A stretch of DNA of 63,969 bases, the filler included, from Catajapyx aquilonaris (Eukaryota): NCBI GenBank assembly GCA_000934665.2. It is 2 parts of 2 records of this genome, joined end to end, with 100 filler letters (N's around TTAATTAATTAA, not from the genome) between each part and the next. Parts side by side here need not be neighbours in the genome. Positions count along the whole stretch, not along the records: positions 1 to 31,978 come from JYFJ02004462.1; 1 more part is not named here. One strand, 5' to 3'. The notes beneath the pieces were generated by a model that saw only the letters and a list, made by a program, of their open reading frames with translations, ran no database searches and had not been told where the DNA came from. The position numbers and the translations under genes are program-made. This document shows, in pieces, positions 2,871-44,489 of the stretch; the stretch's first letter is position 1, and each line of letters starts with the position of its first letter.

Positions 2871-4263
2871 TTAATGCCCTTTCGAATCCTGATTTTTGTT
2901 TAGCAGTTTGTCCAGCATAGTTTCTTTCTCGTCCTGGTGAATCACGTGAAATGTGATGTCCCGTAGAATCCCCGGATCAGCTTCCAACAATGGAGCAAGG
3001 TCATCCAAAGTGTTGATCACTTGAGCTCCAACACTTCTACCTAGGCATTGTATGCAAACACGGCGATAAATAAGGAAATGCAATGGAAACATGAATTTAA
3101 TATAATCATGCATAAGTTTTTGAGGGGAAGCATGATGGCATACTCACCTATCATGTAAAGTGAGTAACCTGCCAGGTTCAGACCTCCCGAGCATATGTCT
3201 TTCTTCTTCTGTTCCTGTTGCACCTGCTGGTCATTCAGATCTGACAGGAAGGTTTTCAGAAAAATGCTATAGTGATAGATGCAGCCTGTGTCCTTCTGGT
3301 AGATGACCACTGGGACTGGCTTCTCCGTCAGTTGGTTCATCAAGTCGAGGCAGCTTGACTCTGGAGGAGCTGCACCAATTTCTTCTCCAGAACCAGTCAA
3401 ATGTGGCTTTGTAGTTCTCAGTTCCTCCTAAAAATTTTACCCATCATTATATCTCTCAATAATTCTCTTCTTGGACTCCTACAGTACATCACATTGTAGA
3501 ACTAACCTTTTCCTTGGCCGTGCCAAGTGCTTCCTTCAAATATTTGGTGAACTTTTCCATTTCTATTTTCAAAAGACGACACTCGGCGATTCGCTCTTCC
3601 AGTTTCATGTTGATGTCATGAATTTCGGACTCACGCATCGATATAATGTTCTGAGCCTCCTTCAACTTCTCGTTCTGTAAGTGTAATTAGCATTCATTTT
3701 ATGCGACTACAACAAAAAAAAATGGTAAGGCACATTATTACTGATATAAACTGCTGTTACCATTGTTTCAACAGCTTTGGCACTTTCGGATTCGAGTTGA
3801 CAGTGAAGGTTTTTGTTGCAAGATTCCAGTTGAGCAGACAAAAGCGTCACTTCCTCTTCCTGTAACAATTAAAACACATCGGCAGTAAACAGTGCACAAA
3901 AAAAAGCGTTACAACTTCGGACTCGTTGCAACTATATTCAGATGTGGAATAGCTTCAAAAATGTTGCGTCTAATGAAACATTTGTCTCACCTTCTGTGAA
4001 AGGGAAGTCTTCAACTTCACCGACTCGTTATTAAGAAGAGTTTCTTTCCTCTGAGAAGCTCCCAAGTTTTTCTTCAAGTCTTTCATCGTCTCTTCTAGCG
4101 AGTTTTGCACATTTTTGTGTGAAATCTCGTGGTGCTTTCTCTTTTCGATCGCTTCTTGCCATATCGAGTAGTAGAAATCCCTCTCATGTTGTAGCTCAGA
4201 TATTTTGTCTTGTAAGCGTTTCTTCTCCTCTTCAAACGTTTGGCCTTTCTGGAGCAGTTCCAT
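2871..4263 (-). CDS. Coiled-coil protein, paralogue A (~329 aa; 5' end apparently decayed)
   Basis: Exons 4263-3991, 3859-3761, 3674-3507, 3427-3148 and 3040-2871 are GT-AG and in frame. The body is E/K/L-rich. The C-terminus (PVPVVIYQK...GLNLAGYSLYMIG|RSVG...ITFHVIH) aligns with paralogue B. Minus-strand AATAAA at 2176-2181. Confidence 0.72.
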
Positions 4264-4589
4264 TTACTGCAGGAAGTGAGTAGAGTATACCAAAAGAATC
4301 CGCAAAAATGTGTTTCAAACAGCAAGTTTTTAAAATAAGTTACAATTACCATTTTCAGTTGATCCATCCTCGCAGTAAATTGGTTAGTATTGTTTCACCA
4401 ATAACACCCTAAGCAACTCCATGGCAGCTATCTCATTGTCCTTTTTTACTCTCACTTTTCTTTGACCAGCCGATTGCTACATGCATCCTGGAAGTAATGT
4501 GTGGATAATTATTAGCAAGAGTATGCCTAAGCAAAATTATAATTTAAAAATATACTTAACAATTATGGGAAAATATTTCCTTCTTGGCT

Positions 4590-4850
4590 TCCCCAACAGG
4601 ACACTACCACTGACTGCTACACACTCCCGTATGATCTCAAGTCTCATGAGGATAAGTCACCTCTTATCACTTGGAAATAAAGTAGTGATACAATTATTAT
4701 ATAGGATTTTTTGTTATGTGTCACGCTATATTATTTGAAACAAGCCAGACAGTTGAGAAGCGTCAGTGATAAAATTACCTTAATTGATAAGATGCACGAC
4801 ACAATCCCTGCCAATCATATATGGCAGAGTGATTGTGGATAAATCAGGTG
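4590..4850 (+). pseudogene. Decayed duplicate of the 970-1309 exon
   Basis: Shares cactaccac, actccc, caagtctc, atcacttggaaa and tcaggtgca with 1030-1314, but reads HYH*LLHTPV*SQVS*G* in the equivalent frame. Confidence 0.5.
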
Positions 4851-6438
4851 CACATGTGTATCATTGTTATGTCTGCTCTCTGCCAAAAATTAAATTTCAG
4901 TTATATCATATTAATGTGTCTGAGTTTCCCTAAATAAGATTGAGGAAGTAAATTATAATTATCGAAAGGAACGTACGCTGAATAATGCTCTACCACGACA
5001 ACAACACGTGACTATTCCTTTAATAGGGCCAACTTTGGTAGGCTAGATACATAAGTATTGAATCGCATTTGAAAATATCATATACTAGGCAACTTTTCCT
5101 TGTTAGATTCTTAGAAAGATATCGATATGAAAGGCAAAGGTTCATGATTGTGTTGCTATGCTGCATATCAAATCAAGCTCGAAGGAGGGGAAAGAATTAT
5201 GGCAGGAGCTAATGACACATCACAAGACACAAGATATTATTTTCGTAACACAACTGATAGGTAGATTATACACTCCCTTTGTGAATGACCTGTCATGCTT
5301 GCAATTTTGTCATAGGTATGACATTATAGGTATGACAGACCTCTTAATGTTGTATATTTTAAAATTTTGGGCCGTGATGGCCTTGTGACTTATTTCATTT
5401 GATTTCTCAGTGACCGATGGCAGAAAAATTCTCATATGAACATGTCTTTAGTTGATGGTATGATGAAAGGCCCATTTTCATGTGCACTTTAAAAAATTGT
5501 TAATCTGCAGCCTTCCATTTTTGTGGAGTATTCAGCAGAATCAGTTACAGTGTGATACAGATGTGTCCATGATCCCATAATTATGTTCTTTTAACGACAC
5601 TGTGTTTAATATGTGCCATCGCATATTGATGAACGACAGTACCTGCAATTGGTGTAGATGTATTATTGTGTATCGATTATGCCAGCAATGAAACTAATAA
5701 TTAGTTTCATTATTAAATTAAACATAGTGGTTTTTTTGGCTCCACCGCAAAAATTAATAAACAATAAGATAATCAGATATTAGCAAAAATTAATATGCAT
5801 ATTGGTACTTGAAAAGAGTTGTATCCTAAATGTAATAAAATTAGACCATTCAATCTTAACGAAGAGCACTTATTTTAACTTTGGCCACAATCCTTTGATC
5901 CGGAATGAAATAAGCTCATAGGAAATATTATGTCACAGGCACAATCATATACCCAGCATTTTGTCTTAAACGTCAGTTCAATTTTTAAACACATTTTTTG
6001 TAACACTTTCTGTAAATCATACTCAATTAAATGTCAAGAACATGAGCATGTAGCAGATGAAAAAAAACAACTTTATTGTTGCTCTCTACACACTGCATAA
6101 TAATACTGCAGGATTAAAAAGCTGAGTACATAAATCACACAAACGTTACATTTTCTTCTGAGTACAGCATTTGTAGTAATACAAAAACATGTGCCTGTAA
6201 TAATAATTAATCATTAAAATTCACCTGTCTCTCTGGAATATACTGTGTTATACTTGATGACATATGGGGTCATCATGTATCTGATCAAACCATAAGCAGC
6301 ACACAGAAACGGGCATTTATGCAACTTGATGATTAATATACCGTACTAGTAGCATGCATAAAACAGACTCCAGTACATCAAAAACAGGAAGGAAAATAGC
6401 AATTCAAATTTGTAGCATTCAGAGTATCCGAATGCCAG

Positions 6439-8435
6439 TCAGCACATTTCAAACTCCTTCTCCTGGTTCTTCAGCAGTTCGGCCAAACGTATTTCCATCT
6501 CCTCCTCGTGAATCACATGGAAGGTGCTGTCCCGTTTGCCCTCCGGAAAACCTTCCAACAGTGAAGTGATGTCCTTAAAGCTGCTGATCAAGTGCTCTCG
6601 TCCATATTTACCTATACATTAAATAAAAAATAAAAAATGGGAATTACAAGCTGGCCTGGATCATTTGAATATGGTAAATACTGTATGTTTGTCAACCGCA
6701 AAATTGTGAGTTATGTGTAATCACAAAATTGCTGTATTTTTTTTGCAGCGCTGCAGGCGAACGAACATCATTGTGGCTTTGCCACTTCGCTGCGTAAAGA
6801 TCCAGATTATAATATACACACCTATCATATAAATGGAGTAACCAGCCATCCTCAGCCCTTCCATGCAATCTTTTTTGGACCTCAAATCTAGCTCATTCAC
6901 CAGCGGATGATTCAGGTGAGAGAAAAGAGACCTTATGAAGACACCGAAATCATTGCCATCTTCCTCACGCAGCTCGGCCTCTTGGCACGAGCATCTCCTG
7001 CCCTTCTGATGGATGACCACCCGGATTGGCTTCTGCAGCTGGTTCAAGTCGAGTTTCTTCGGTTCTGGAGCAGTCGAGCACTCTGCCTCCTCAGATCCAG
7101 TCAGAGCTGGCAGATAGCGTTGGGTCAGTAACTTTGCGTACTTCTCAGCCGTTGTCTCTGCCTGCAAGAGATGTACGTGACAAAGTATTGCTTCTTTCTC
7201 TACCATTTATGATCACATTATCATGTTAACTTACTTTCTCCAGCTGTTCTCGAAGCAACCTGGCTTCAGTCTCCTTCTCCACAGCCTTTTCTTTCATTTT
7301 ATATTCACCCTTAATCGATTCCAGTTGCATTGTATACTTTTCCTTCTCCATGTTATCAGCTTGCTTCAACGCATCTTGTAACAGTTTGCCCTAAGGAATG
7401 ATAGGGACGCATGTACTTCTAATGCGCCAATGTGTAGCTTGTGTAACAATACCCTTTCTTCCAACATGAGTGACGTTGTCTTCAGCTTATCTGATATTCT
7501 CTCTCTCTCCATAGTCAAGAATCTGCCATCGCAAGACCGTTCCACCAGCTGCATATCTGCGTCCGTTTTTTGATTCTTCAGATTGTCCAGCTGATTTTTC
7601 AGTTCTTTGACCTTGGCACGCTGCAAATGCGTTTGTTAATTATTGTCTTATATGAACACATACAACGCGCAGCCTACCTTACTCTCAACCTTCCTCTCTT
7701 TCTCTTGAACCTGCTTTTCATATGTCTTCACTTCACTTTTGAGCAGCTCAGAAGCCATGATGCTGATGTGCAATTCTTGTTGGAGCTTGGTCTTGTCCGC
7801 TTCCAGTTGTTTTATTTCCTTCTGCAGACCTGACTTGTCCGTCAGCAAGTTCTCCACCAGTGGGTGTCGTCCAACTGAAGCCATTACATCCTACACATGG
7901 AATCCAATCACAAAATGTGATTTTTTCCAATAAGTATATGGTAGGACATACCTGAACTTCATGGGTTGCAACAGAATTGCTTTGAATGAAACCCATGAGT
8001 GACAGTACTTCCTGGCACTTGCGGTCCAATTGCGCAGCCAAATCATTGATCTTTCTATCCAGAGCAGCATTACGTTCTTCTTCACGAGTCAGATTGAGCT
8101 TCAGATCAAAAACTACCTGCTGCGAGTCTTCGTAAAGCTTCTGAAGCGCTTCGGCCTGGGCTTTCCAGTCAACATTTCCCTGATTGAAATAAGGGTGAGA
8201 AATTAATTATGAGTCGATGGGAAAATCAATCAATGAGAATAGGGCATACCTCATCATTTTGTTCTGGATTGACGTCGTCACTGACTCCAGCCCTGAGCAA
8301 AAGTTGTGATATGTTAGAAAATATGCTTCCATCATTGGTCAGGTTTTTTGTCATCATATACAGACGTTTTACTGCTTCATAAAACTGATTGCTTTCAGTG
8401 AAGTATACTTACGGTGTCTGTCCATCTTCAGCCAT
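6439..8435 (-). CDS. Coiled-coil protein, paralogue B (~447 aa, 8 coding exons)
   Basis: Exons 8435-8413, 8292-8250, 8179-7952, 7890-7678, 7620-7453, 7390-7235, 7161-6822 and 6611-6439 are all GT-AG with a continuous frame. Start context is accATGG. C-terminus KPIRVVIHQK...GLRMAGYSIYMIG|KYG...STFHVIH. AATAAA at 6072-6077. Confidence 0.82.
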
Positions 8436-8530
8436 GGTTCTTTCAGTTGTTCACTCTCTGCCTAATTCCAAGTAACTGCTTCGCCTATGACTCACGGCGA
8501 CTACTCAGGGACCACATGACTTCTAGCTCC

Positions 8531-8695
8531 TTATCAGAAACTTGATAACTACTTTTCCTGCTACACGATGAAGACAATTTTTATAGACAATGCTTACAGA
8601 TATAAAACCCCAGGCTGTATAAGGTGTTGTCGCAGATTTCCACCCACGGAGGAATTCCCTTGTTATCAGCCTTCGCCTTGATAAAACTGTTATCA
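8531..8695. promoter_or_regulatory. Cluster of five TGATAA/TTATCA (GATA-type) sites upstream of paralogue B
   Basis: Sites at 8531, 8543, 8663, 8679 and 8690, about 100-260 nt 5' of the ATG at 8435. Confidence 0.45.
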
Positions 8696-8715
8696 GGGTG
8701 ATACCACCCACTCTT

Positions 8716-9052
8716 GTCTTGACTAAGGCGTGGGGACGGACATTGATCACTTTTCACTGCGAGTGTAAACTGATCTAACCTAACCTAACCTAACCTAACC
8801 TAACCTAACCTACCCTACCCTACCTAACCTACCCTACCCTAAGTAACCTAGGCTGAGAAAAATGGACTTTTGTGAAACCCTACAAATGAAAATAGTGGGG
8901 ACATGTCCCCACTAATTTACACATGTCCCCACTGTAATGGTACACTTCGCGTGTGTGAGACTGTGGGGACCGACAAATGTCCCCACAATTGGAACTGGTC
9001 CCCACAGCTACAGTAAAACCACAGACTTCCGTCCCCAGACCTTAGTCAAGAC
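8716..9052. mobile_element. Non-autonomous inverted-repeat element (MITE or Helentron-like) with an internal (CCTAA)n tract
   Basis: 25-nt inverted termini gtcttgactaaggcgtggggacgga (8716-8740) and tccgtccccagaccttagtcaagac (9028-9052), with 2 mismatches. GTGGGGAC/GTCCCCAC motifs recur inside, including a 22-nt perfect palindrome at 8893-8914. Confidence 0.65.
8775..8850. repeat. Interstitial (CCTAA/TTAGG)n tract, the arthropod telomere-type pentamer
   Basis: Seven perfect TAACC units at 8776-8810, followed by TACCC/TACC variants. Confidence 0.9.
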
Positions 9053-9729
9053 CTGATCACTATTAGCGGTGCACTATCCAAGTCCCAATTCCAAGTAGAA
9101 AGAATGTAAAAAGTTATGAACTGCTCATTTTTCAAAAGTCAGCTGAAATATAAGCAACAATGAGCGTCACAGTCTATTTCTGCTTCGACAATGGGTGTGA
9201 TATACTAATTATTTTCACTTGTATTGTACCGACGTTGCAAAACTCATTTGCCAAGTCGTCTACATACACAGTTATCGGTACACATTTGCTTTCATATAGG
9301 GCGATCCTTGCAGACAAAAATATGCGTAGTATTGCCAATTTTAGAAGCCAATATTACTGATCATCGGTTTTAGAAATTGATTTGTAGAAGATGAAAAAAT
9401 AGCGTATTACTTGCAATTAGAATAAATGGTCAGTTGCCTTAAAAACAACTGGATTTAATTCCCATTCAATATAGTACAGCATAGATAATGCAGAAGTCTT
9501 GTTACATCAACAAATAATATTGTGCACAATACTTATATGGATTATGAGCAAAAAAAACCTAGGCTTGCTGAAATTTTTGCAATCTTGTAACAACGTCATG
9601 GCCATTTTTGTGGAAAAAAAACTTTATCTGAACATGTACTGTATGACCAAGAGTAATTTTCGATGCACATGCTTTTTTTGCAATGTGATGCTTTTTTTGT
9701 GACCTTAAGAATGATTTGACCTAGTTGGG

Positions 9730-11898
9730 TCAGAGCTGGAGCAATTTCAGCTGGACACTGCTTTCCTGTAGCCATTCACCGAATACATTCAGAAGCATAG
9801 CATCATCCATCTTCATCGGATCCATATCAGGGACATCACCTGAAAACAACATAAAAATATTCAAAAACTCCATGAATGAAATAAAGAGAGAATATTTCGC
9901 CAAATATACCTTCCCACAGAAAAGTATAACCAGCATTTTGCAGATCCGACCATGACGAAATGGCAATTCCATGTTCGTCCCTGATCTTGAGTGGTGTCAA
10001 AAGTGCTTTTGACAGACTGGACATTGTTGGAGGCTTGTCACATGGAACTTTCAGGCAGTAAATCTCACCCTCTGTGCTTCCAGTGCGAAAAACCTCAACA
10101 TTGACCGACAACATGGGACAAGATGAGGGCACACTCTGTGTTTGTTCTTTCTGCAAAAATAAACCTAATATGAAAAATGCTGAAAAAATTGGGTTTAAAT
10201 TTTCAGCGATACGAACCGCTTGAACTTTCGATTGCGAAATAATTTCATCCGCTTCAAATCTCGCCAGTTTTATATCCTGCGCTCGCTTTTCTCTTTCCAG
10301 TGCGTCCAACTCTTGCTTTGTTTCGGCCATAACCTTTTCCTGTATGAGCTGGTGTTATAATTGGATTTGCCCACAAATATATGTCTGCTCGTACAAACCT
10401 TTTCATGTAGTTGGTCACTTTTTGTCCGAAGCTTTGACTTCACATCGTCCAATTCAGATATTTTAATTTTCAGTTCAGTTCCCATCTTCATCATTTCCAT
10501 TTCCAATGTCCGCTTCTCATCTCGTGTCTTTTCCAGAGCTGCTTTTATTTCACGCATCTCAACTTCCTATACATAAAATAATATTGATAATGCCAACCCT
10601 GCATGATGCGCACTCTATCATTTAATTACCATGCTTTGTATCTTCCCATCTTTTGCTCTTACAGACTCTTCGAGATGCCCAATTTCCTTCTGGAGCCTTT
10701 GTGTCTCCATATCTGCTTTGCACAACTCCATGTTTAAATGCCCTGCATCACTATTTGATTTAGTAAGCACCTCCTGTGATAAACAGCATAAAAAAAAATT
10801 AACATTTGTAGTGCATAATTTGGTTTAAAAAAAATTATACCTCATTCTGGCAGGTAAGCTGGAATATATTTGCTTCCAAATACTCAATCCGTGCTTTGAG
10901 TGACACTTTGTCACCATCACATGCACGTAATCTCTTTTGCAATTGATCCAGCTTCTCGTTACCTGAGATCAGGTCTTTGATCAGAGTTTTTTTCTCCTCA
11001 TCCTTCTCAACCAGCTTTATGTTCAGGTCAGAAATTACTTTCGATTTAGTTTCCAAGTTTGCCTTCAGATCGTCATAATCCGTGTGTATGCATTCATGCG
11101 CAGGCAATTTGCATAGTGCTTGCGGCTCTACAGTGATCACATGTTGTTCGATTGCAGCTACAGTGTCGACTTGAATTTCTTTGCTTAACACTTCAGGTTT
11201 TGCACTACCGCTACTTTCTGCGACGACCTGCTTCGTGATGTCCAATATTTCTCTCATGACTCGCATCATGTTTCGATGCAGTTCATTCCCATCATTATGG
11301 CCTGAACTGGGATCATACTGTAAGGAATGTTCATTAAAAATACTCCTCAAAATGAAATACACAAAAAAATCCAGCCTTACATGTTCGATCATATGTGGCC
11401 TCACACGACATAGCACTGTGTAAGCACGTCTGTAGTCTTTGAGTAATTTTTTCTCCTCTTTATTTCTGATTCTGTCCTCATCAGGTGCACTCGGATAACA
11501 ACATCGACAGCCACAACACCTGTAAAAATAAAGATTGAAATGCTGGGAAGAAAAACAAGTTAACAGCCACGAAATAATTATTCCAAAAAAATGGGCGATT
11601 AATTAATTAATCAGCAGTTGCTTCCTCCTACATGGTCGTATTATAAGAGCTGTCAATATAGTGTTCACAAAACTGGTTATCAGACATGCCCTTCTTATCA
11701 GACTTCCAGTCATATGAGAATGGGACACACACCTCTTACTTTTAACTATAAAAAACCAACTTCATAGAGCGTCAATGTATGCATTTCATACTCTTTTTTC
11801 CCCCTCTATTTAGCTTGTTATACTGTCAAAAATTCTGATCGAAAGTAGAGAGATACTCACAATCGCAAAAAGTCATCCCAAATTCCAATGTCACCCAT
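9730..11898 (-). CDS. Coiled-coil protein, paralogue C (~479 aa, 8 coding exons) with an N-terminal Cys cluster
   Basis: Exons 11898-11861, 11519-11381, 11317-10841, 10773-10630, 10566-10399, 10339-10217, 10150-9910 and 9839-9730 are GT-AG and in frame. Begins MGDIGIWDDFLRLCCGCRCCYP. C-terminus VNVEVF...IYCLKVP...DLQNAGYTFLWEG|DVPD...VQLKLLQL. Confidence 0.82.
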
Positions 11899-13589: not shown

Positions 13590-14480
13590 TGTGTGTCACA
13601 TAGGTCATGCACTGTATGTACAAAGGTCATGCGTACGTAGGTCATGTTCCATTTGTATGTACAAATATTGTGGACCGTGTGTACATAGGTCATGTTCCAT
13701 GTGTACGTATATCATGCACTGTATGTACAATGATTGAGGACCATGTGTACATAGGTCATGTACCATTGTTCAAATTTCAGGTCAGTACTTGCAATTAAAT
13801 AGTATGGCGTGTACGTAGCTCATGCACTCTTCGTACAAAAATAATCCATTATGTGTACGTAGGCCGTGTACCATGTGTACATAGGTCATGTTTCGTGCAT
13901 ACACAGGACATGCATTGTATGTACTCAGATCGTGTGTACATAGGTCGTGCATTGTATGTACTAAGATTGTGTGTACATAGGTCGTGCATTGTATGTACTA
14001 AGATCGTGTGTACAGAGGTCATGTATTGTATGTACCAAGATCGTGTGTACATAGGTCATGCATTGTATGTACTAAGATCGTGTGTAGATAGTTAAAGATA
14101 ATTATGTACTTATGTCATGTTCTGTACATACACAGGTTGTGCACTGTATGTACAGTACAAAGATCATGCATCATGTGTACATAGGTCATGTACCTTGTGT
14201 ATGTAGATAATGTTCATGCATTGTATGTACATATAGTGGGTCATGCACCTTATGTACAAAGATCATACATAGTTCATATTCCGCGTATACAGACGTCATC
14301 CACAATGTGCACATAGGACATGTATTCATCCGCTGTGTGTACATATGGCATGTATTGTAAATACATAGGCCATCCACAGTGTGTACATAAGCCATGTATT
14401 GTAAATACACAGGTCGTGCACTGTACATACAATGCCCTGTACCACCGTAGGTCATGTACTGTACGTACATAGGTCATGTT
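13590..14480. repeat. GTAC-rich minisatellite (37-nt unit) in the presumed CDK1 5'-UTR intron
   Basis: atcgtgtgtacataggtcatgcattgtatgtactaag-type units start at 13929, 13966, 14003, 14040 and 14077 (partial). Degenerate cataggtcatg units flank them. Confidence 0.9.
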
Positions 14481-14531
14481 CGGTGTAAGTCGCATTGTGT
14501 AATTAACCGACTTCTTTCAGCGGAGATCACG

Positions 14532-15531
14532 ATGGAGGACTTTGTGAAGATTGAGAAGATCGGCGAAGGCACGTACGGTGTCGTCTACAAAGGTCGTAAC
14601 CGGCGTACTGGCGAGATCGTGGCGATGAAGAAGATACGTGTTGAGAGCGAGGACGAGGGAGTCCCTGCGACGGCCATCCGGGAGATCTCTCTCCTGAAGG
14701 AGCTGCAGCATCCAAACATCGTCAGGCTCCAGGACGTGCTGATGCAGGAGGCTAAGATCTACCTCATATTCGAGTTCCTCACCATGGACTTGAAGAAGCA
14801 TCTGGATTCGCTCGGATCCGGAAATCTGCTGAAGCCACCTATCGTTCAGTCGTACATGTACCAGGTGAGTCCAACCGTTTTCCGTACTTCGCACGTTGCT
14901 AAGTACGTACTCTCCACAGATCCTGAACGGCATCCTGTTCTGCCACCAGCGGCGTATCCTTCACCGCGATCTGAAGCCGCAGAACTTGCTGATTGACAAC
15001 AATGGTTGCATTAAGATTGGGGATTTTGGGCTGGCCCGCGTGTTCGGTGTGCCTGTGCGTGCGTACACTCATGAGGTGGTTACGCTGTGGTACCGTGCCC
15101 CTGAGGTGCTGTTGGGGGCCCAGCGGTACTCATGCCCTGTTGACATATGGTCCATCGCCTGCATCTTTGCGGAGATGGCCTCCCGACGTCCGCTGTTCCA
15201 AGGCGACTCAGAGATCGACCAGCTCTTCCGTATATTCCGGTAAGCCCCGCTGCGATTACTATCGACCGGTGTACACATGGATTACTGTTGCAGGGTACTG
15301 AGCACCCCGACTGAAGAGGTATGGCCTGGCGTCACTCAGCTCCCGGACTACAAGGCCAGCTTCCCCAACTGGACCAGTAACAGCCTGGTCGACCACGCAA
15401 AGAACCTGAACAACGACGGAATCGACCTCCTCAAGAGCATGCTTGTGTACGACCCTGCTAAGCGCATCTCCGCACGTGCCGCCTTGCAACACGAGTACTT
15501 TCAAAACATGGTTGTCAAACCACCTGTTTAA
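14532..15531 (+). CDS. CDK1: Cyclin-dependent kinase 1 (cdc2), ~296 aa, 3 coding exons
   Basis: Exons 14532-14864, 14920-15239 and 15294-15531. Motifs [65 protein letters not shown] and [19 protein letters not shown] at 15784-15789. Confidence 0.96.
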
Positions 15532-15868
15532 AAGCATTTTTCTCCCCCTCCTTCCTAGGACTGTCTTTTTTTTTATGTATTTATCAGTTACGTGTGGGAG
15601 GGGTCAAAAAAGTTGCAGCACACACGCGAGACAATTAAAAACTTGGGTTACGCCTCGAAAGACGTAAACAGATTTTTTAATTGTCTCATGACTTCTCATA
15701 TCATAACCCGGATAAAATGACTTTCTGCATATTTTTTTCGTGGCAGAAGAAACCATGTAACATATTGTGTCCGGTAACTTGTTAATAAAACTGTGTCCCC
15801 CAGAGCTAATGTGACAGAGTCAATCTTTATTGAACGAAATTTATCTACAGAACATTACTCGCATATGC

Positions 15869-16326
15869 TTATTGACTGATAGGGTCCACAGCAGGTTCTG
15901 GAAAAATAAACCGGTAAAATTTTCATTGCTATGATCGCATTTCTGTGTACGCATGTCTCACCTGGGAAGTTGAAGGTCGGGAACTTGGTCATGTCCACTC
16001 CCTGTCCGCCCCCGTAGATCTTTGCGATCCGGTCCATCTCGGTTTTCATCTCCCTCTCGATGTCTGGGTTCGGGTCGACCAACTTGCCTCCAGATGACCT
16101 GCAAAATTTGTTACGTACAGCGACCGATAACAGTTCAAAACGACTCGGTTGTAATACAAAGAACACCTTACTCGCTCTTCTTGCGGTAATCCCGGATCTT
16201 ATCGACGAAAAGCTTCTGGATCGGATCGGATACCTTCTGCGCCAAGGGTGCGACCACTCCAAAGTTCCTCCTGAGGGTCAGGGCCAGAGAGCCCTTTCCG
16301 CGGAGAAGCACGCGCTGGATCAGCAT
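15869..16326 (-). CDS. ATP5PF: Mitochondrial ATP synthase coupling factor 6 (~106 aa)
   Basis: Exons 16326-16172, 16098-15962 and 15897-15869. Arg-rich presequence ...LRRNFGVVAP, then DPIQKLFVDKIRDY, GGKLVD and YGGG..DMTKFPTFNF.EP..DPI. 5'-UTR intron 16338-17765. AATAAA(-) at 15826-15831. Confidence 0.95.
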
Positions 16327-18258: not shown

Positions 18259-21200
18259 ATGCCGGGCTACCTAAAGTACATCGAGATGGAGAACTTCAAG
18301 TCCTACAAGGGCTTCCAGAAGATCGGTCCACTCAAGCCCTTCACCGCAGTCATCGGCCCTAATGGCTCAGGTACATATTATTATTCCAAAATAGTGTGTT
18401 CCATTGTTCGTCCAGGATCCTTAAGGCGCCTCACATTTTGATCAGTTTATATGTTTGTCCAGGTTGGAATGGGGGTTCACCCGATTTTTGTATGCTTGAT
18501 TGTTTGTCCAGTATATTGGCCACAAGCAAACAAACTTTGCATTTCATACACGTAATATACACGTATGTAGATGATTGGGCCTGACGGTGCAGGTTTGTTT
18601 GTTTGTTTGTCCAGATCCATGTTGCCATTACTGCTAATTACGTTACTGTTAAAAACAGGCTGTACAAAGTGTTCCGCTGACGAAGGGGTCAACGACCGTT
18701 CATTTAAGCGTATGTGCCAAGTGTACGTCGCATTTAATTAGTCGTTATCTGCTCAAATTACGGTATGATTATACAGCGACAACTTAATATAATTATTCGT
18801 ATAATGTGACAAGTGCGAAAAGTTTCGCTGCCGTTTATTATAGCGGATGTTCTAAATGTACATACCGTTTAATTAGTCGTTACTCGTTGGATTACGGTCT
18901 GATTACAGTACGAGGGGTTAACGACCTTTTATTGTAGCGGATGTTCCAAGTGTACATACCGTTTAATTAGTCGTTACTGGACAGTACGATTATGCCTTAA
19001 AAAATTTGTACCTTTATGTACTATCTGTCACAAAAAGTTTTGGCTGACAATGAACCGAAAGCTCGGGCAAAAGTGGACACGAACGTTATGTTATAGATTT
19101 GTGCATGTAATTGCCCAAAGTACCAAGTGTAATTTGTTTGCAGTCTGATCGCAACCTGAGGCGTTAACTGCACCGCACGAAGCGACACGAGGGGGAAAGA
19201 AAACATGTCGACATGTGCCATGTCGACTTGTCGCAACACACTGAGAAACACTAGGAACACAAGAAAGGTTTCCTTCTTTTCATTCCCGAGCGATCCGAAG
19301 GTCCAGAAGATATGGATCGCACGATGCAAAAAGAAGGGTCCGTTGAACGTCCGATCCGCCCGTGTGTGCTCTGATCACTTTGAGGAATCGGATTTCGAGA
19401 GGAGCATGATGCACGAACTTATGAACGAAGCGCCAAGAAGACGGACGCTTAAGATGGAAGCGGTACCCAAGAAAGATGTCAACTCTGCACCGAGTGTTAG
19501 AGACCAGCGTGTTTATAAACGGAATGTTCTCAAGCGTGCCTTTGAAAGGTTAGCGAAATTGTCGCCAAAACACAGTCAAGAAGATGACGAAACGCAACAT
19601 GTTGATGCATTTGCTGTGGACGACGATAATGCATTTGCTGTGGACGACGATAATGCCTATGATAGTTATACGGCTTGTGCTGCGGATAACGACATGATTA
19701 GCGATAATACGACTAACGATGCGGATTCAAAAAGAATTGAAGATCTCACCAACGAACTGCAAGCTACGAAGAAGTTGCTGCACGAATCGCAATCGCAGGT
19801 TCAGGTCCTCCGAAAGCAACGTGACAATTGGAAGGAAAAGTACTACAAACTATTGCGAGAACGTGCAAGGAAGTGACTACAAAATTTTTTCCAGAAGAGC
19901 TCAGTCGATCCGGCTGGAAAAGAACCTGGACAACATAACATTTCCGGATTATTTTCCAGCCGGGAAGTGCACAATCGGACCTAATTGTTTGTGACAGCTA
20001 CTTTAAATTTGTTTAAAAATGTGTGTGGTCCGCATGCTTAGCACGGGCGACACTTCGATCTTGACATGACGACAAGAGTAATGCGATCCTCGGACAAGAA
20101 CATTTAACATCGGTTGGAGCAACAAAGATGCATAGAGACTTGGTCTTTGGGCAAACCACAATAGCTATAGGTATAAGCCTGTACGCAAAATATTTATATT
20201 GAGATTCTAATAATAATTTGTGAACTTAACAGGGAAGTCGAACTTCATGGACGCCATCAGTTTCGTAATGGGAGAGAAGACGAACAGTTTGAGAGTGAAA
20301 CGTCTGAGCGATTTGATCCACGGGGCGTCGATCAATCAGCCTGTGTCTCGCAGGTATTGCTTTCGGTTCTATTGGTTGTACGTCAGTTTTAAATACGATT
20401 GTTACAGCGCATCGGTGACGGCCGTTTTTGAACTGGAGAACGGAATTGAGAAGAGATTCAGCCGAGGAGTTCAAGGGTCGTCCTCGGAGCATCGGATTGA
20501 CGGAGAGGTTTGTTTTGACTTAACTTTATGTCGTACACGTTTCCGCATTTTTTTTTGAACGTTCCAGTTTGTGAGCATCCACACGTATCTGAACGAGCTG
20601 GAAAAGATGGGGATCAATGCGAAGGCCAAGAACTTCCTGGTGTTTCAAGGCGCAGTCGAATCCATTGCCATGAAGAATCCAAAGGAGCGTACGGCATTGT
20701 TTGAAGAAATAAGCGGGTCCATCACACTGAAGGAAGAGTACGACCGACTGAAGACGGAGATGTACCGTGCGGAAGAAGAGACGCAGTTGACATACCAGAA
20801 GAAAAAGGGGATTGCTGCTGAACGTAAGGAGGCGAAACATGAGAAGGAAGAAGCTGAGAAGTACCAGCGGCTGAAGGACGAGCTTGCCGAAAAGCAGGTT
20901 AGTCGCATCTTGTTCATCCGAGAGAATATGTCGTTAACAATGGCGTCGATTTCAGGTGGAGTTGCAGCTATTCCGACTCTACCACAACGAGAGGGACATT
21001 GAGAATCTGGAGGGCGATCTTCGTAAACGAAAGCATGAAGCCGAGAAAGTGGGTAAACGGAAGGAGAAAGCCGAGGAAGTCCTGAAGGAGAAGAAGAAGG
21101 AGCATGGAAAGCTGGGGCGAGATATGGCCAAAGTTGATAACGATATACGAGTTGTCGAGGCGGAAATAAACCGGAAGCGACCTACGTTCATCAAGGCGAA

Positions 21201-24200
21201 GGAGCGAGTGGCTCATATGGCCAAGAAGCTCGGTACGTTAACAGTTCGCAAAATTTGTAACAAATGTGTTGACTATCGTTTCATCCAGAATCTGCAAAGA
21301 AGAGCTTGACGCAAGCGAAGAAAGCGGACGATGCCCACTTGGAGGACATTGCCGTTCTGCAGAAAGAGCTGGACGAAGTGGAGCTGAAGAAGGCGGAGTA
21401 CGAGGAGCAAGTAGCCGGAGAGAGCCAGTCGCAAGGAAGAGACGTGCAGTTAGAAGAAGCGCAGGTGAGTGTTTCGTCTGATCGAATCGTGCCGAATGTT
21501 AACGTCTCGCTCTCTCTCGACAGGTGAAGGAATATAACGATCTGAAGGAACAGGCTGGGAAGCTCTCGGCTCGGTTCCTGCAGGATCTGGATTCGATCAA
21601 CCGGGAGCAGAAGTCGGATCAGGATCGCCTTGATAACGAGATGCGGGTGAAGAGCGAGGTCGAGAACAAGCTGAAGCAGAAGGGACACGAGTTGGAAGAG
21701 GCGCAGAAGCGGAGGGAGAAGCTGGCCGAACATATCCGGACGAGCGAGAACGCATTGGAGGAGCAGGTTCGGATGCGGCAGGAGCTACAAGGCGACGTGG
21801 TGTCGTCGAAACAGCGGATTCAGGAGCTGCAGGGCGAACTAGATCAGGTCGTACAGCAGCTGGGCGACGCTCGAGTCGACAAGCATGAGGATTCGAGGAG
21901 GAAGAAGAAGCAGGAGATCGTCGAAAACTTCAAGCGGCTCTTTCCGGGAGTGGTAAGTTCGGATGGCGTAAACACAAGCGATGTCATAATTTCGCAATTT
22001 CCCAGTACGACCGGATGATCAACATGTGCCAGCCGATCCACAAGCGGTACAACGTCGCCATTACGAAAGTGCTGGGAAAGTACATGGAAGCCATCGTCGT
22101 GGACCAGGAAAAGACGGCTAGGGACTGCATCCAGTTTCTCAAGGAGCAGATGCTGGAGCCGGAGACGTTCCTGCCGCTAGATTACATACAGGCAAAGCCG
22201 CTGAAGGAGCGACTCAGGTATGTACAAATTCGCCATGAAGTTGATCCCGTAAAGCTGATGTGTTTCAACGCAGGAATACGAGGGATCCGAAGAACGTTAA
22301 GCTGCTTTACGACGTGCTTCAGTACGACCCTCCCGATATCAAACGGGCCGTGCTATTTGCGACCAACAACGCGTTGGTTTGCGAGATGCCAGAAGATGCG
22401 ATGAAAGTCGCTTACGAAATGGAGGACGGGCACAGATATGATGCAAGTGTTGCGCACAATTTCGATAGCGAATTGTTACCTAACCCGAATGCAATTTCAG
22501 GCCGTTGCGCTCGACGGGACTTTTTACCAGAAGTCCGGGATTATATCCGGCGGCAGTTTGGATCTGGCTCGAAAGGCGAAACGTTGGGATGAGAAGCATC
22601 TGAGTCAACTGAAGCAAACAAAGGTGCGCAATTGACCCGTCAAAACTAATTATGATCAGTTGTAATCAGCGGAACGTATTGTTTTGCAGGAAAAACTGAG
22701 CGAAGAGCTGCGCGACTCCATGAAGAAGTCGCGAAAGGAATCCGAGTTGAACACGGTCGAATCGCAGATTCGTGGCCTAGAAACTCGGCTGAAGTACTCC
22801 AAGAGTGATCGAGACAACACTGTAAGTACCGCAGATTTAACCGTGGCGGACACTTGAACTTAATTGCGATTTTTTTACGCAGGCAAAGCAAATCCACCAA
22901 CTACAGCAGGAAATCGAGAACTTGGAAGAGCAGTTGCGTCAGTACGATGTGAGTTATTTAATGCACCGTGTTTTAGTTGGCTGTGTAATTACTTGTACTT
23001 TCGTTAGCCTCAGATGGCTAAAATAGAGGAGGTGATGCGCCAGCGGGATTTGCGGATCCAGGACGTGAAGGGTCGGATGAACAACGTGGAGGACGAGGTT
23101 TTTGCAAACTTCTGCACGCAGATTGGAGTCGCCAATATCCGGCAGTACGAGGAGCGTGAACTAAGGTGAGTGCGGACAACTACGGTGCCCACATTCACTG
23201 AATTGATTATCCCGCAGGACGCAACAAGAGAGGGCGAAGAAGCGATTGGAGTTCGAGCACCAGAAGAATCGGATTCTGAATCAGCTTGAGTTCGAACGAT
23301 CCAGGAATACAAGCAGTAAGTCATTGTTGTCGTTGGTTTATTTAGTTGATTATGTTTAAACTTCCCCGACCAGACAATGTCGGGCGTTGGGAACGTGCGG
23401 TGCATGACGACGAGGAAGAGCTGGAGCAATGCAAGCTTGCGGAGACGAAGCAGATGAGCGAGATCGATCAGGACATGCGGGAGATGGACCGACTCAAGTC
23501 GGAGAGGCTGACCCGCAACAACGAGATCAAGGCGATGGACGAGGAGATTGCGAAGGCCAGGAGAGAGGTTGGGAACATCGCGAAGGAGATTCAGGCCGTC
23601 GAGAAGCAGATGGCATCGTTGGAAAGCAAGGTCGAGCAGAAGAGGAACGACAGACATTCGGTCCTCAAGCAATGCAAGGTCAGAGTTACTCGTCTTGCGT
23701 TAGTTTCTGAATGTACGCGATGTAAACAATGTCTAATTTTTACAGATGGAGGACATTGTAATTCCGATGACCCGAGGAAACATGGAGGACATAGAGCACG
23801 ATACGACAATGGAGTCTCAGTCGGATGGAAACAAAAGTCAAGGCTCGCAGTCCAGTTACGATCGGGAAAGCAGGTAACGTTTTTGGCGACCAAAAGTTTC
23901 GAGCGAACTTGTAATAATTGCGTTTGTCCGCACTGCAGGATAGTGATAGACTACCTGGCCTTGTCGGACAACCTGAAGGATTTAGACGACGGCGATGAAG
24001 TCAAGAAGATGGGCGACAGGTTGACGCGATTCATATCCGATCTCCAGCATACGATTCAGAAGATACAGGCTCCGAATATGCGGGTCAGTTTTTTTATTTT
24101 GGAAATTTGCTGAATCTCGATAATGGAACATGTGCTGTTTTTCCAGGCTATGCAAAAGCTGGATCTTGCCCGCGAGAAGCTGCATGAGACCAACGAGGAG

Positions 24201-25014
24201 TTCGATCATGCTCGAAAGCAAGCCAAGAAGGCGAAGCAGAATTTCGAGAGGATTAAGAAGGAGAGGCACGACAGGTTCATCAAGTGCTTCGATCATGTTG
24301 CGACCGAGATTGACGGCATTTACAAGGTATGTCGAATTGTGATACGTATCGGGTACGTTGTTCTTCACTTGATCTTTCCCGCAGTCGTTAGCCAAGAACC
24401 AATCAGCGCAGGCGTTCCTGGGTCCAGAGAATCCGGAAGAGCCGTATCTGGATGGGATCAACTACAATTGCGTCGCTCCCGGAAAGAGATTCCAGCCAAT
24501 GTCCAACTTGTCCGGAGGGGAGAAGACAGTCGCTGCTCTTGCACTACTCTTCGCAGTTCACAGGTACCGCGGCCGTCCTTTTTTTAAAAAAAATTCAAAT
24601 TTTAATTAAATCTGATTTCCGCAGCTACCAGCCGGCGCCTTTCTTCGTCTTGGATGAGATCGACGCAGCTTTGGACAACACAAACATCGGAAAGGTGGCC
24701 AGCTACATTTGCGACAAGACGTCTTCGCTTCAGATAATCGTTATCTCGCTGAAGGAGGAATTTTACAGCTATGCCGATGCCCTGATTGGAATTTGCCCCG
24801 ATGTAAGTGCGCAGCTTTGTTCTATCATTCTATAGAAGCAGTTTTTTAATGTTGACGGTTTTTTTGTTTACAGCCCGGGGAATGCCTGGTGAGCAAGGTT
24901 CTCACGATGAATCTGACGGACCATGCGTCGCATTTGCCCCAACCGTCTCAACCGATAATCATGTCTCAGTCGCAGATCATGTCGCAGTCCATGTCTCACT
25001 CGCAGACGCAGTGA
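18259..25014 (+). CDS. SMC1: Structural maintenance of chromosomes 1 (cohesin ATPase), 21 coding exons
   Basis: Exon 1 is 18259-18370 (ENFKSY...GPNGSG), exon 2 starts at 20233 ([11 protein letters not shown]) and the last exon is 24874-25014. Motifs [15 protein letters not shown], hinge [23 protein letters not shown], signature LSGGEK, Walker [13 protein letters not shown] and IVISLK. The frame is continuous across all introns. Confidence 0.97.
18680..18980. repeat. Three degenerate ~80-95-nt direct repeats upstream of the THAP ORF
   Basis: Shared core agcg.atgt..caagtgtac....tttaattagtcgtta at ~18680-18776, 18831-18909 and 18910-18980. Confidence 0.8.
19205..19876 (+). CDS. THAP-domain zinc-finger protein (223 aa, single-exon ORF) nested in SMC1 intron 1; probably transposase-derived
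   Basis: C-x4-C...FFSFP...W...RVCSDHF...LK..AVP THAP signature, followed by an acidic linker and a C-terminal coiled coil. No DDE domain lies in frame. Confidence 0.88.
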   Translation: MSTCAMSTCRNTLRNTRNTRKVSFFSFPSDPKVQKIWIARCKKKGPLNVRSARVCSDHFEESDFERSMMHELMNEAPRRRTLKMEAVPKKDVNSAPSVRDQRVYKRNVLKRAFERLAKLSPKHSQEDDETQHVDAFAVDDDNAFAVDDDNAYDSYTACAADNDMISDNTTNDADSKRIEDLTNELQATKKLLHESQSQVQVLRKQRDNWKEKYYKLLRERARK

Positions 25015-25650: not shown

Positions 25651-25889
25651 CCGAAAGGTAAACTTTTCTCTACTGTTAACGCAACCTGGCCCCGAAATAT
25701 CCGACATTAGGCTACTGAAATAGATATTGGGCACCATTTGATTTGTACGCTGTATACACATTGCTTCTGATAAAAAGAAAAGACAAGTTGTAAAATGTCA
25801 GATTATCATTTCTAAAGATAGCGACCTACAAACAGTGATGAAACACCTTTGCTGCGATAAGAGTGGCAACGGCTTTTGTCAGTTAGACA

Positions 25890-27127
25890 ATGGAAGTGAG
25901 GCAAGTGGATTTCCGATGGGAAATTCCGTCGTTTTCAGCTCGTTCTGAATCCGTCGGAGAGTACTTGGAGTCCTCGAGATTCCCTGCGAGTAAGGACGAA
26001 GCGCAGTGGTACTTGGAAGTGTATCCGCATGGAGACGAACCTGAAAATCAAGGATGGCTGTCCTTCCATTTGCGTCTTGAGTCGTCGCCGTTTGGAGAGG
26101 AGCGGGTGAACTTCAAGCTGGAGCTTCGGAACCAATCGGGCGAAACACTGAAGAAATGCGCCTCGGAAGACTTCACCCTGTTGCAAGCCTCAGGACCGAA
26201 CGGACTCGGATCAGGACGACTAATTTCTCGAGAGTTTCTAATGGACAGACCATTGGGACGGAAACTTCCTGGAGATTTGCTGATTTTAGTCTGCAGCCTG
26301 TCCATAGTTCAACAACATAAAGTGAGTTTGCGGCGATGCGACAATGCATGTTATGTTAATTCGTTTCTTCGTAGGTTCCTCCGGTTGTGCCGCCTCGCAC
26401 CAACAAAGTTTCAGAGCATGACTTGTCCGAGGTCATGTTGCGTCTGTTTCAGCGACAGGATAACTTCAGCGATGTCGTTCTGAGAGCAGGGAAGCGACTT
26501 TTTCATGCCCACAAGGCGGTTCTGGCTAACCGAAGCCCCACGTTTGCTGCAATGTTCAGAAGCAACATGATGACCGCAATCGGAGAGCGGATGGTGGCTG
26601 AAATAAAAATAGCTGACGTTTCGGAAGAAGCGATGGAGCAGGTCTTGCGATATATCTACACAAACAAATGCTCTAAAACGCAAGCTGCTGAACTTGTACG
26701 AGTCGCTCAAAGGTACGATGCACATGTAAAAATCGTAATGCGTAAATATTCCGCAACTGTTTGCTGTAGGTACGGCTTGGATGGACTTCAGCTTGAATGC
26801 GAGTCGCACCTTGCGACGGGCTTGAATGTCGACAACGCATGCGACATGTACTTGCTGGCATGCCGATGCAAAGCGGCTCACCTGGAAAAGATGGCTGTCA
26901 CTTTCATACACAAGAACGTCAGACAAGTCATTCGGACTGTCGGTTGGCAGAACCTGCTGAGATCAGGGTCCGACGATGGGATCGGACATCTCGTGGAGAC
27001 ATTATTGAGCTTGAAGGTGGACGACGAGCCGAAGGTTACTCAGCCGACTGCTCAGCCTCTTCAGGATAAAGACACGGGTGCGAAGGTTTTAGTGAAGCAG
27101 CCGTGGCGTGGCGACAGTGGCGTGTAA
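25890..27127 (+). CDS. Divergent SPOP/roadkill-like MATH-BTB-BACK protein (~375 aa), a likely Cul3 adaptor
   Basis: Exons 25890-26321, 26375-26712 and 26770-27127. MATH: FRWEIPSFS, WYLEVYPHG, DLLILVCSL. BTB: FSDVVL..G...F.AHKAVLA.RSP.F.AMF, LRYIYT. BACK: LNVDNACD..LLA. An acceptor just before the ATG suggests an upstream exon. Confidence 0.9.
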
Positions 27128-43700: not shown

Positions 43701-43937
43701 TTGACCAGAATGAAATAGAGCGTAATGACCAAAATCTCCAAATAACGAATGAATGAGTCGAATATGAGCCGTTGGAATTAGGTCTGGGAGTGGTTCAAAG
43801 TGCGTATACAAAAGAGGCTTTTGTCCGACAAGGTGGCTTTGATTCTCGCGTTTTTGGGGAGGGAAGCGTAAAAAACAGTTTTTTGTGTTTCGCACGGTTT
43901 GTCTCTAAGTTTGGTCCTTTTTTTTTCTCTTTGACAG

Positions 43938-44489
43938 AACCAGAACTGGTTCAAGACCTGCTGACGTGTGGCGTTTGCCAGAAGGAGTTCGCCCTGGCAG
44001 ACATCGTCAAGTTCATTCAGCACAAAGTGCTGAGTTGCAACAAAGAAAACTACCTATTGGCGTACGACGGCGGAGCGGCCAGCGACGACGACGAAGGCGG
44101 AGGCGGCAGTGGCGGTGGGCCGACGGTCAGCGTCCATAGCAGGAGACCCAGCATCTCCGCGCCCATCAATGCCAAGAAAAGCCACTCCTCCACCTCCACA
44201 TTGCTACAGCTGGATAAGGACAAGCTACTAACTACTGCCTCGTCGACGTCCACGTCGCCACCAGAGGCCCCGGCGTTGCTGGTTCCGCCACCACCGCCTA
44301 GGCCGCTATCTTCCACCTCGCCGCCAACCTCCCCCAGGCTGAGTGCGCGGGAAAACTCGAGAGACAAAGACAGGGGGGTGGGGGCCATTCTGAAGCAGGA
44401 GAAGGACTCCACGGAGGCTTGCGACCGTCTGAACGAAGAAGGGAGGAGTAGGAGAGTCGGAGAGGTCGAGGCCAACAACAACAATACAG
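43938..44489 (+). CDS. BCL11: Internal exon of a BCL11A/B-like (Chronophage/CG9650-like) zinc-finger transcription factor
   Basis: Acceptor ttctctttgacag|43938 and donor ACAG|gtcagt bound a 552-nt phase 1-1 exon. DLLTCGVCQKEFALADIVKFIQHKVLSCNKEN matches the BCL11 N-terminal CCHC finger, followed by RRPSISAPI and a Ser/Pro-rich linker. Other exons were not found in the window. Confidence 0.9.

Follow-up and report, generated by a model that had tools for sequence, protein, structure and literature searches.

Introduction

Among described scaffold proteins, those built on small ubiquitin-like domains come closest to the genes studied here. PB1 is given, in the part of the literature drawn on here, as a beta-grasp domain of 80-100 amino acids (aa) with five strands and two helices, whose sequence is poorly conserved except for a strand-1 Lys, a strand-3 Tyr and the acidic OPCA core D-x-D/E-x-D/E (PMC7051960). 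DIX is described there as a ubiquitin-like domain that has one helix besides its five strands and forms head-to-tail polymers through a bridge from strand 2 to strand 4; in Ccd1, a coiled-coil protein, the DIX domain is C-terminal (PMC5552852). Here, we analyse three genes, A, B and C, in a stretch of 63,969 nucleotides (filler included; hereafter the window) from the genome of Catajapyx aquilonaris (assembly GCA_000934665.2, two joined records). The genes lie on the minus strand between 2871, the stop codon of A, and 11898, the ATG of C. A first-pass annotation made from the sequence had described them as a tandem family of coiled-coil proteins with a shared C-terminal domain, a candidate beta-grasp of DIX or PB1 type. 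We find that they are real, expressed genes and we hold, with slightly better than even confidence, that they form a tandemly duplicated family, probably restricted to one lineage, whose members are rod-shaped cytoplasmic scaffolds or adaptors with an uncatalogued C-terminal alpha/beta domain of 105-127 aa.

Gene structure and transcript support of A, B and C

Gene models were assembled from coordinates (Table 1). All introns are GT..AG and none of the three frames contains an internal stop. B and C have identical exon counts and intron phases (2,0,0,0,0,0,1), as the annotation had claimed. The penultimate coding exons end in LNLAGYSLYMIG in A, LRMAGYSIYMIG in B and LQNAGYTFLWEG in C, which follow the pattern L..AGY[ST]....G, and in all three genes a phase-1 intron cuts the codon of the motif-final Gly after its first base. 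The bodies, which had been called E/K/L/Q-rich, have E+K+L+Q fractions of 0.42, 0.42 and 0.36 in A, B and C, respectively. Thus, the earlier description of the three genes is confirmed as accurate in detail.

The annotation had also proposed that the junctions be confirmed from transcripts. Our transcript evidence consists of the spliced contigs of one public sequencing run, X1, the library type of which is not on record and which contains 44% of the sampled words of the stretch. In these contigs, 13 of the 18 predicted coding junctions are present (3/4 in A, 4/7 in B and 6/7 in C), and the terminal phase-1 introns of A, B and C are each among them. The joints listed for X1 (15 of a total of 16) all have minus-strand GT..AG ends; the two that are not coding junctions, 4266/4350 and 4486/4560, fall in the 5' untranslated region (UTR) of A. 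The predicted junctions that lack contig support are 3859/3991, 7890/7952, 8179/8250, 8292/8413 and 11519/11861. Moreover, X1 cover is absent over 8019-8632, i.e. over the first two exons of B and the 5' portion of its third, and B exons 1-2 are therefore drawn from sequence signals alone.

Directly upstream of the ATG of A, an in-frame TAA is present at 4264-4266. The frame of A is therefore closed upstream, and A is a genuinely shorter protein. The 5' UTR of A also contains an upstream open reading frame (ORF) of six codons, with its ATG at 4366, that after splicing terminates on the TAA just before the main ATG. In total, we conclude that A, B and C are real genes and that they are expressed.

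Relationships among the three genes

Compared by sequence, the tails of A and B (tail domain at approximately residues 216-329 of A and 321-447 of B) are clear homologues with 40% identity over 152 aa (BLAST, E 6e-30). The alignment bears out the claim that LTGS, P..VVI.QK and TFHVIH are common to both, and AGYS.YMIG is likewise shared. For B and C, the bodies align with 25% identity over 115 aa (40.0 bits, E 2.5e-8), while the highest score among 100 shuffles was 22.7 bits and the reversed sequence scored 20.8 bits; in this alignment the B introns between residues 169 and 170 and between 225 and 226 coincide exactly with C introns between 266 and 267 and between 322 and 323. The bodies of A and B gave 27.7 bits (E 8e-5), with A116-171 aligned to B161-216 and the exon boundaries coincident at an offset of 45. 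Because of this alignment, a 168-nt exon in A is the counterpart of exon 5 in B and C, and this exon is present in all three genes. Searches of the window by tblastn with A, B and C detected no fourth copy. Altogether, these comparisons indicate that A, B and C are tandem paralogues and that the region around their last intron is inherited.

The annotation had also claimed that a single C-terminal domain is common to all three proteins. This stands for A and B, and it extends to C as far as the motif anchored at the exon end; over the C tail as a whole (approximately residues 375-479), similarity in sequence to the tails of A and B is not significant. BLAST gave no match between the C tail and the A/B tails, and hhalign aligned the 12-column motif alone (P 0.25). 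Allowed to fall at any position, the 12-residue motif is within chance, as 5/12 identities were reached in 197/300 shuffles; when it is anchored at the exon end, the same 5/12 identities were reached in 29/200,000 shuffles. The absence of a match by BLAST and the hhalign value would also be expected if B and C had only coiled-coil bodies and gene structure in common, the tails being different domains that have diverged past a common fold or been replaced, and AGY[ST]xxxxG being a short stub retained beside the inherited intron. Also in line with such an origin, the C tail is shorter (105 aa versus 114-127 aa in A/B), the A/B tails have an extra C-terminal helix region, and the neighbour lists that the fold searches described below (Atlas and VIA) returned for C are unlike those for B. 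However, it does not account well for a terminal intron of the same position and phase flanked by the anchored identities, for predicted structural elements that follow the same order around this intron, or for the identical exon counts and phases, and we regard different tail domains as unlikely, if still a contender to be reckoned with. We infer that the three tails derive from one ancestral domain, of which the A/B type and the C type are diverged descendants.

Searches for known relatives

Because the terminal intron interrupts the tail domain, Pfam scans were run per exon. No family reached the cut-off for any exon of A, B or C; the coiled-coil exons gave sub-threshold matches to coiled-coil families only, and for the six tail exons no match of relevance came up, even with the limit set at E<=10. 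In sequence searches of the PDB, no match was obtained below E 0.17. Word-indexed searches of protein libraries for longer proteins, in which the first tail exons of B and C and exon 3 of C served as queries, returned no match. Scans of metagenome contigs returned 471 pattern matches for C tail exon 1 and 121 for the A/B alignment, and none was confirmed. Together, these searches uphold the view that the family had not been recognised before: as far as sequence comparison goes, the tail belongs to no catalogued family and the A/B/C family is uncatalogued. The further suggestion that the family could be lineage-specific agrees with the absence of relatives from these searches, and lineage restriction is likely; the grade stays provisional because it hinges on how well the searched libraries cover arthropods.

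A HMMER search with the A+B tail exon profile against 1.84 billion representatives gave two matches (E 2e-6 and 4e-4). We judged both spurious, as they are repeat proteins whose alignment is limited to a short LTG-type stretch.

Predicted fold of the tails

Structure prediction covered the first tail exon of each type, as the domain is interrupted by the terminal intron. C tail exon 1 (80 aa) was modelled with AlphaFold 2 (AF2) from the single sequence, and B tail exon 1 was modelled with AF2 with A as the alignment. In the C model (predicted local distance difference test score, pLDDT, 65.9), strands are predicted at 13-22, 28-36 and 75-79 and helices at 43-51 and 67-72, the latter short. In the B model (pLDDT 55.4), strands are predicted at 46-52, 61-64 and 108-112 and helices at 71-82, 86-89 and 96-105. 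The last strand begins at the motif Tyr in both models. Moreover, both partial models have a strand-strand-helix start and, further on, a helix ending in AG, the Tyr-started strand, the Gly and the intron. This agreement is compatible with a common fold.

For C, three weak but concordant leads suggest that the tail may be a ubiquitin-like beta-grasp. The nearest neighbours of C tail exon 1 in the language-model ESM Atlas are GRHL1_C (0.86), TDP-43_N, PB1, CIDE-N, KHA, ANKRD40_UBL and the Par3 N-terminal domain, which are all ubiquitin-like or PB1/DIX-like and all score below the 0.9 that the tool requires. Among the 50 VIA-wide rows obtained with the C model, about 30 have a ubiquitin-like fold. 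Foldseek with the C model gave no match below E 1.2, and a two-chain complex prediction of C tail exons 1 and 2 scored 0.21, against a mark of 0.34 for the tool, a value that carries no weight either way. For B tail exon 1, Atlas gave no usable match. Accordingly, the candidate beta-grasp of the first-pass annotation has weak ubiquitin-like leads in C; the AF2 and Foldseek check proposed with it yielded strands and helices for the first tail exons and no close structural match for C.

The predicted elements of B alternate between strand and helix, an arrangement that would also suit a three-layer alpha/beta fold (strand-helix-strand-helix-strand-helix) of thioredoxin, glutaredoxin or flavodoxin type in the A/B tail, rather than a beta-grasp. 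We consider this very improbable: no Pfam or PDB-sequence match to such families was obtained, the theme is absent from the VIA rows, and no CxxC pair is conserved between A and B. By eye, VVIYQK...C and IG....DDL in A/B resemble what we take to be glutaredoxin-type patterns; a glutaredoxin-like identity for A/B was dropped, as there was no match of any kind.

The linker that precedes the A/B tail domain (LTGS ... LDL.NQL..KP; 7030-7110 and 3310-3400, minus strand) is invariant between A and B at many positions, and is conserved as strongly as the domain. It is modelled as disordered (pLDDT <50), and to judge from its conservation it may be a short linear motif for binding or phosphorylation.

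Comparison with PB1 and DIX scaffolds

TFG combines PB1 with a coiled coil. Like PB1 in the scaffolds p62/SQSTM1, TFG and Par6/aPKC (PF00564), the A/B/C tails are small domains with a predicted strand-strand-helix start. In all three tails, the Tyr opens the strand preceding the terminal intron. As in PB1, this Tyr-opened strand in C stands before an acidic stretch, which has five Asp in the 15 residues past the split Gly; A and B have no acidic run and carry a neutral or basic loop instead. In the A/B tails, the first predicted strand is followed at once by an invariant Lys (VVI.QK) that may correspond to the strand-1 Lys of type-2 PB1 domains; C has Arg at this place. The tails differ from PB1 in that they have no Pfam match, are longer (105-127 versus 80-100 aa) and lack the strict OPCA core, as the acidic run of C contains no D-x-D/E-x-D/E and so does not qualify as type 1. 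Moreover, the domain of A, B and C lies at the C terminus behind a long coiled coil, unlike in the PB1 scaffolds, and its fold is a predicted one.

Ccd1/DIXDC1 has the same overall order as A, B and C, with a small C-terminal domain behind a coiled coil; this domain is ubiquitin-like in DIXDC1 and putatively so in the tails. By contrast, no exon of A, B or C has a Pfam match to DIX or to the calponin-homology (CH) domain, there is no detected sequence similarity, and the tails have two or more predicted helices versus one in DIX. For the DIX-like polymerising domain of SOSEKI (PDB 6rsn) and the ubiquitin-like self-association domains GRHL1_C and TDP-43_N, all scores are below the trust levels of the tools; their domain contexts differ from those of A, B and C, and there is no sequence relationship.

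The first-pass annotation had read the tails as genuine polymerising modules of PB1 or DIX type, through which the proteins would form head-to-tail filaments or puncta. We find this improbable: the per-exon scans gave no match to PB1 (PF00564) or DIX (PF00778) for any tail exon even at E<=10, every score is within the chance range, and the missing OPCA core and the helix count speak against PB1 and DIX, respectively. Overall, that interpretation is supported in part: what holds of it is a real, expressed, uncatalogued tandem family with a weak ubiquitin-like signal in C.

The Asp run of C, together with the Lys and the neutral or basic loop of A/B, suggests a complementarity like that of type-1 and type-2 domains. 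The two tail types could thus be complementary halves of a PB1-like front-to-back system, in which C, whose Asp-rich run follows the Tyr strand and which has no Lys behind strand 1, would contribute an acidic face, and A/B, with the invariant Lys and the neutral or basic loop, a basic one. The paralogues would then co-assemble via their tails, and the resulting hetero-oligomeric coiled-coil scaffolds would have the Cys cluster of C as their membrane anchor. We put this forward as a quite improbable, if specific, possibility; if true, it would reveal that an arthropod lineage has an uncatalogued branch of the polymerising ubiquitin-like modules, a sequence orphan.

A possible working of the proteins

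The bodies are poor in Pro and Gly and have patches of 3.5-residue hydrophobic periodicity. In the scaffold or adaptor family that we favour, the helical E/K/L/Q-rich body would most likely pair as a parallel coiled-coil dimer, so that two copies of the C-terminal domain would be presented per rod. The domain would keep its order of elements around the conserved intron, namely strand, strand, helix, further elements, a helix ending in AG, the Tyr-started strand and Gly before the intron, and one more helix and strand after it. The C-type tail is most likely a ubiquitin-like beta-grasp and would serve as a protein-protein interaction module. Cys clusters can be sites of S-acylation (palmitoylation), and C has such a cluster, CCGCRCC, near its N terminus; by analogy, C is probably tethered to membranes through this candidate S-acylation site, which would act as its anchor. 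The N terminus of B is acidic and has no Cys cluster, and A has no N-terminal region; A would be a shortened B-type copy that has lost its N-terminal part.

If the tail is a sequence-orphan ubiquitin-like branch, a lineage-specific scaffold system would be added to the class of PB1, DIX and SAM-like polymerisers that organise signalling assemblies, and the locus would be a case in which, through tandem duplication, a single domain gave rise to two highly dissimilar sequence types within a preserved gene structure. If A, B and C are no more than a coiled-coil family that evolves fast and ends in an ordinary small domain, the value lies in annotation, i.e. three real expressed genes, correct exon models and one defined domain outside the catalogued families.

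Locus and window features

Table 1. Coordinates of the A, B and C genes, their parts, neighbouring genes and a BCL11A-like zinc finger in the window
Feature	Coordinates	Strand	Description	Basis
Gene A 5' UTR	4264..4560	-	spliced	X1 joints and sequence reading
Gene A coding region	2871..4263	-	5 coding exons, 329 aa; short coiled-coil body and A/B-type tail	GT-AG introns, open frame; contig junctions 3040/3148, 3427/3507, 3674/3761
Gene A coding exons	4263-3991, 3859-3761, 3674-3507, 3427-3148, 3040-2871	-		
A 168-nt coiled-coil exon	3507..3674	-	corresponds to exon 5 of B and of C	
A tail exon 1	3148..3427	-	LTGS, PVVIYQK, AGYSLYMIG; last base is the first base of the split Gly	
A tail exon 2	2871..3040	-	TFHVIH and stop codon	
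Gene B coding region	6439..8435	-	8 coding exons, 447 aa	contig junctions 6611/6822, 7161/7235, 7390/7453, 7620/7678; exons 1-2 and 5' part of exon 3 predicted
Gene B coding exons	8435-8413, 8292-8250, 8179-7952, 7890-7678, 7620-7453, 7390-7235, 7161-6822, 6611-6439	-		
B 168-nt coiled-coil exon (exon 5)	7453..7620	-		intron mapping in B-C body alignment
B tail exon 1	6822..7161	-	predicted strands and helices	AF2 model
B tail exon 2	6439..6611	-	TFHVIH and stop codon	
Gene C coding region	9730..11898	-	8 coding exons, 479 aa	6/7 junctions in spliced contigs
Gene C coding exons	11898-11861, 11519-11381, 11317-10841, 10773-10630, 10566-10399, 10339-10217, 10150-9910, 9839-9730	-		
C Cys cluster CCGCRCC	11498..11518	-	residues 14-20; candidate S-acylation (membrane anchor) site	
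C 168-nt coiled-coil exon (exon 5)	10399..10566	-		B-C body alignment
C tail exon 1	9910..10150	-	predicted strands and helices	AF2 model
C tail exon 2	9730..9839	-	acidic run at start (5 Asp within first 15 residues), VQLKLLQL end, then stop codon	
Protein kinase	14451-15240	+		Pfam on open frame
ATP synthase coupling factor 6	15858-16277	-		Pfam on open frame
THAP-domain ORF	19160-19873	+		Pfam on open frame
SMC protein	20217-24832	+		Pfam on open frame
MATH-BTB protein	25887-27124	+		Pfam on open frame
BCL11A-like CCHC zinc finger	43757-44530	+		Pfam on open frame

The window is that of an animal genome with short introns, and the neighbouring genes and the BCL11A-like zinc finger were identified by Pfam matches on open frames. 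A minus-strand open frame at 60820-61257 matches the fusion domain of Phlebovirus glycoprotein G2 below threshold (E 4.4e-4, 19.8 bits versus a cut-off of 22.9); it may be an endogenous viral fragment, or the match may be due to chance.

Between B and C, a short element at 8705-9059 has 25-nt terminal inverted repeats (8716-8740 and 9028-9052) that are 92% complementary, and contains a (CCTAA)n tract at 8778-8850 as well as repeated ATGTCCCCAC words. The depth of the X1 contigs peaks at this element, and loose contig ends are found at 8705, 8914 and 9059. The element looks like a multi-copy transposon similar to miniature inverted-repeat transposable elements (MITE-like), and its (CCTAA)n tract presumably corresponds to the arthropod TTAGG telomere-type motif.

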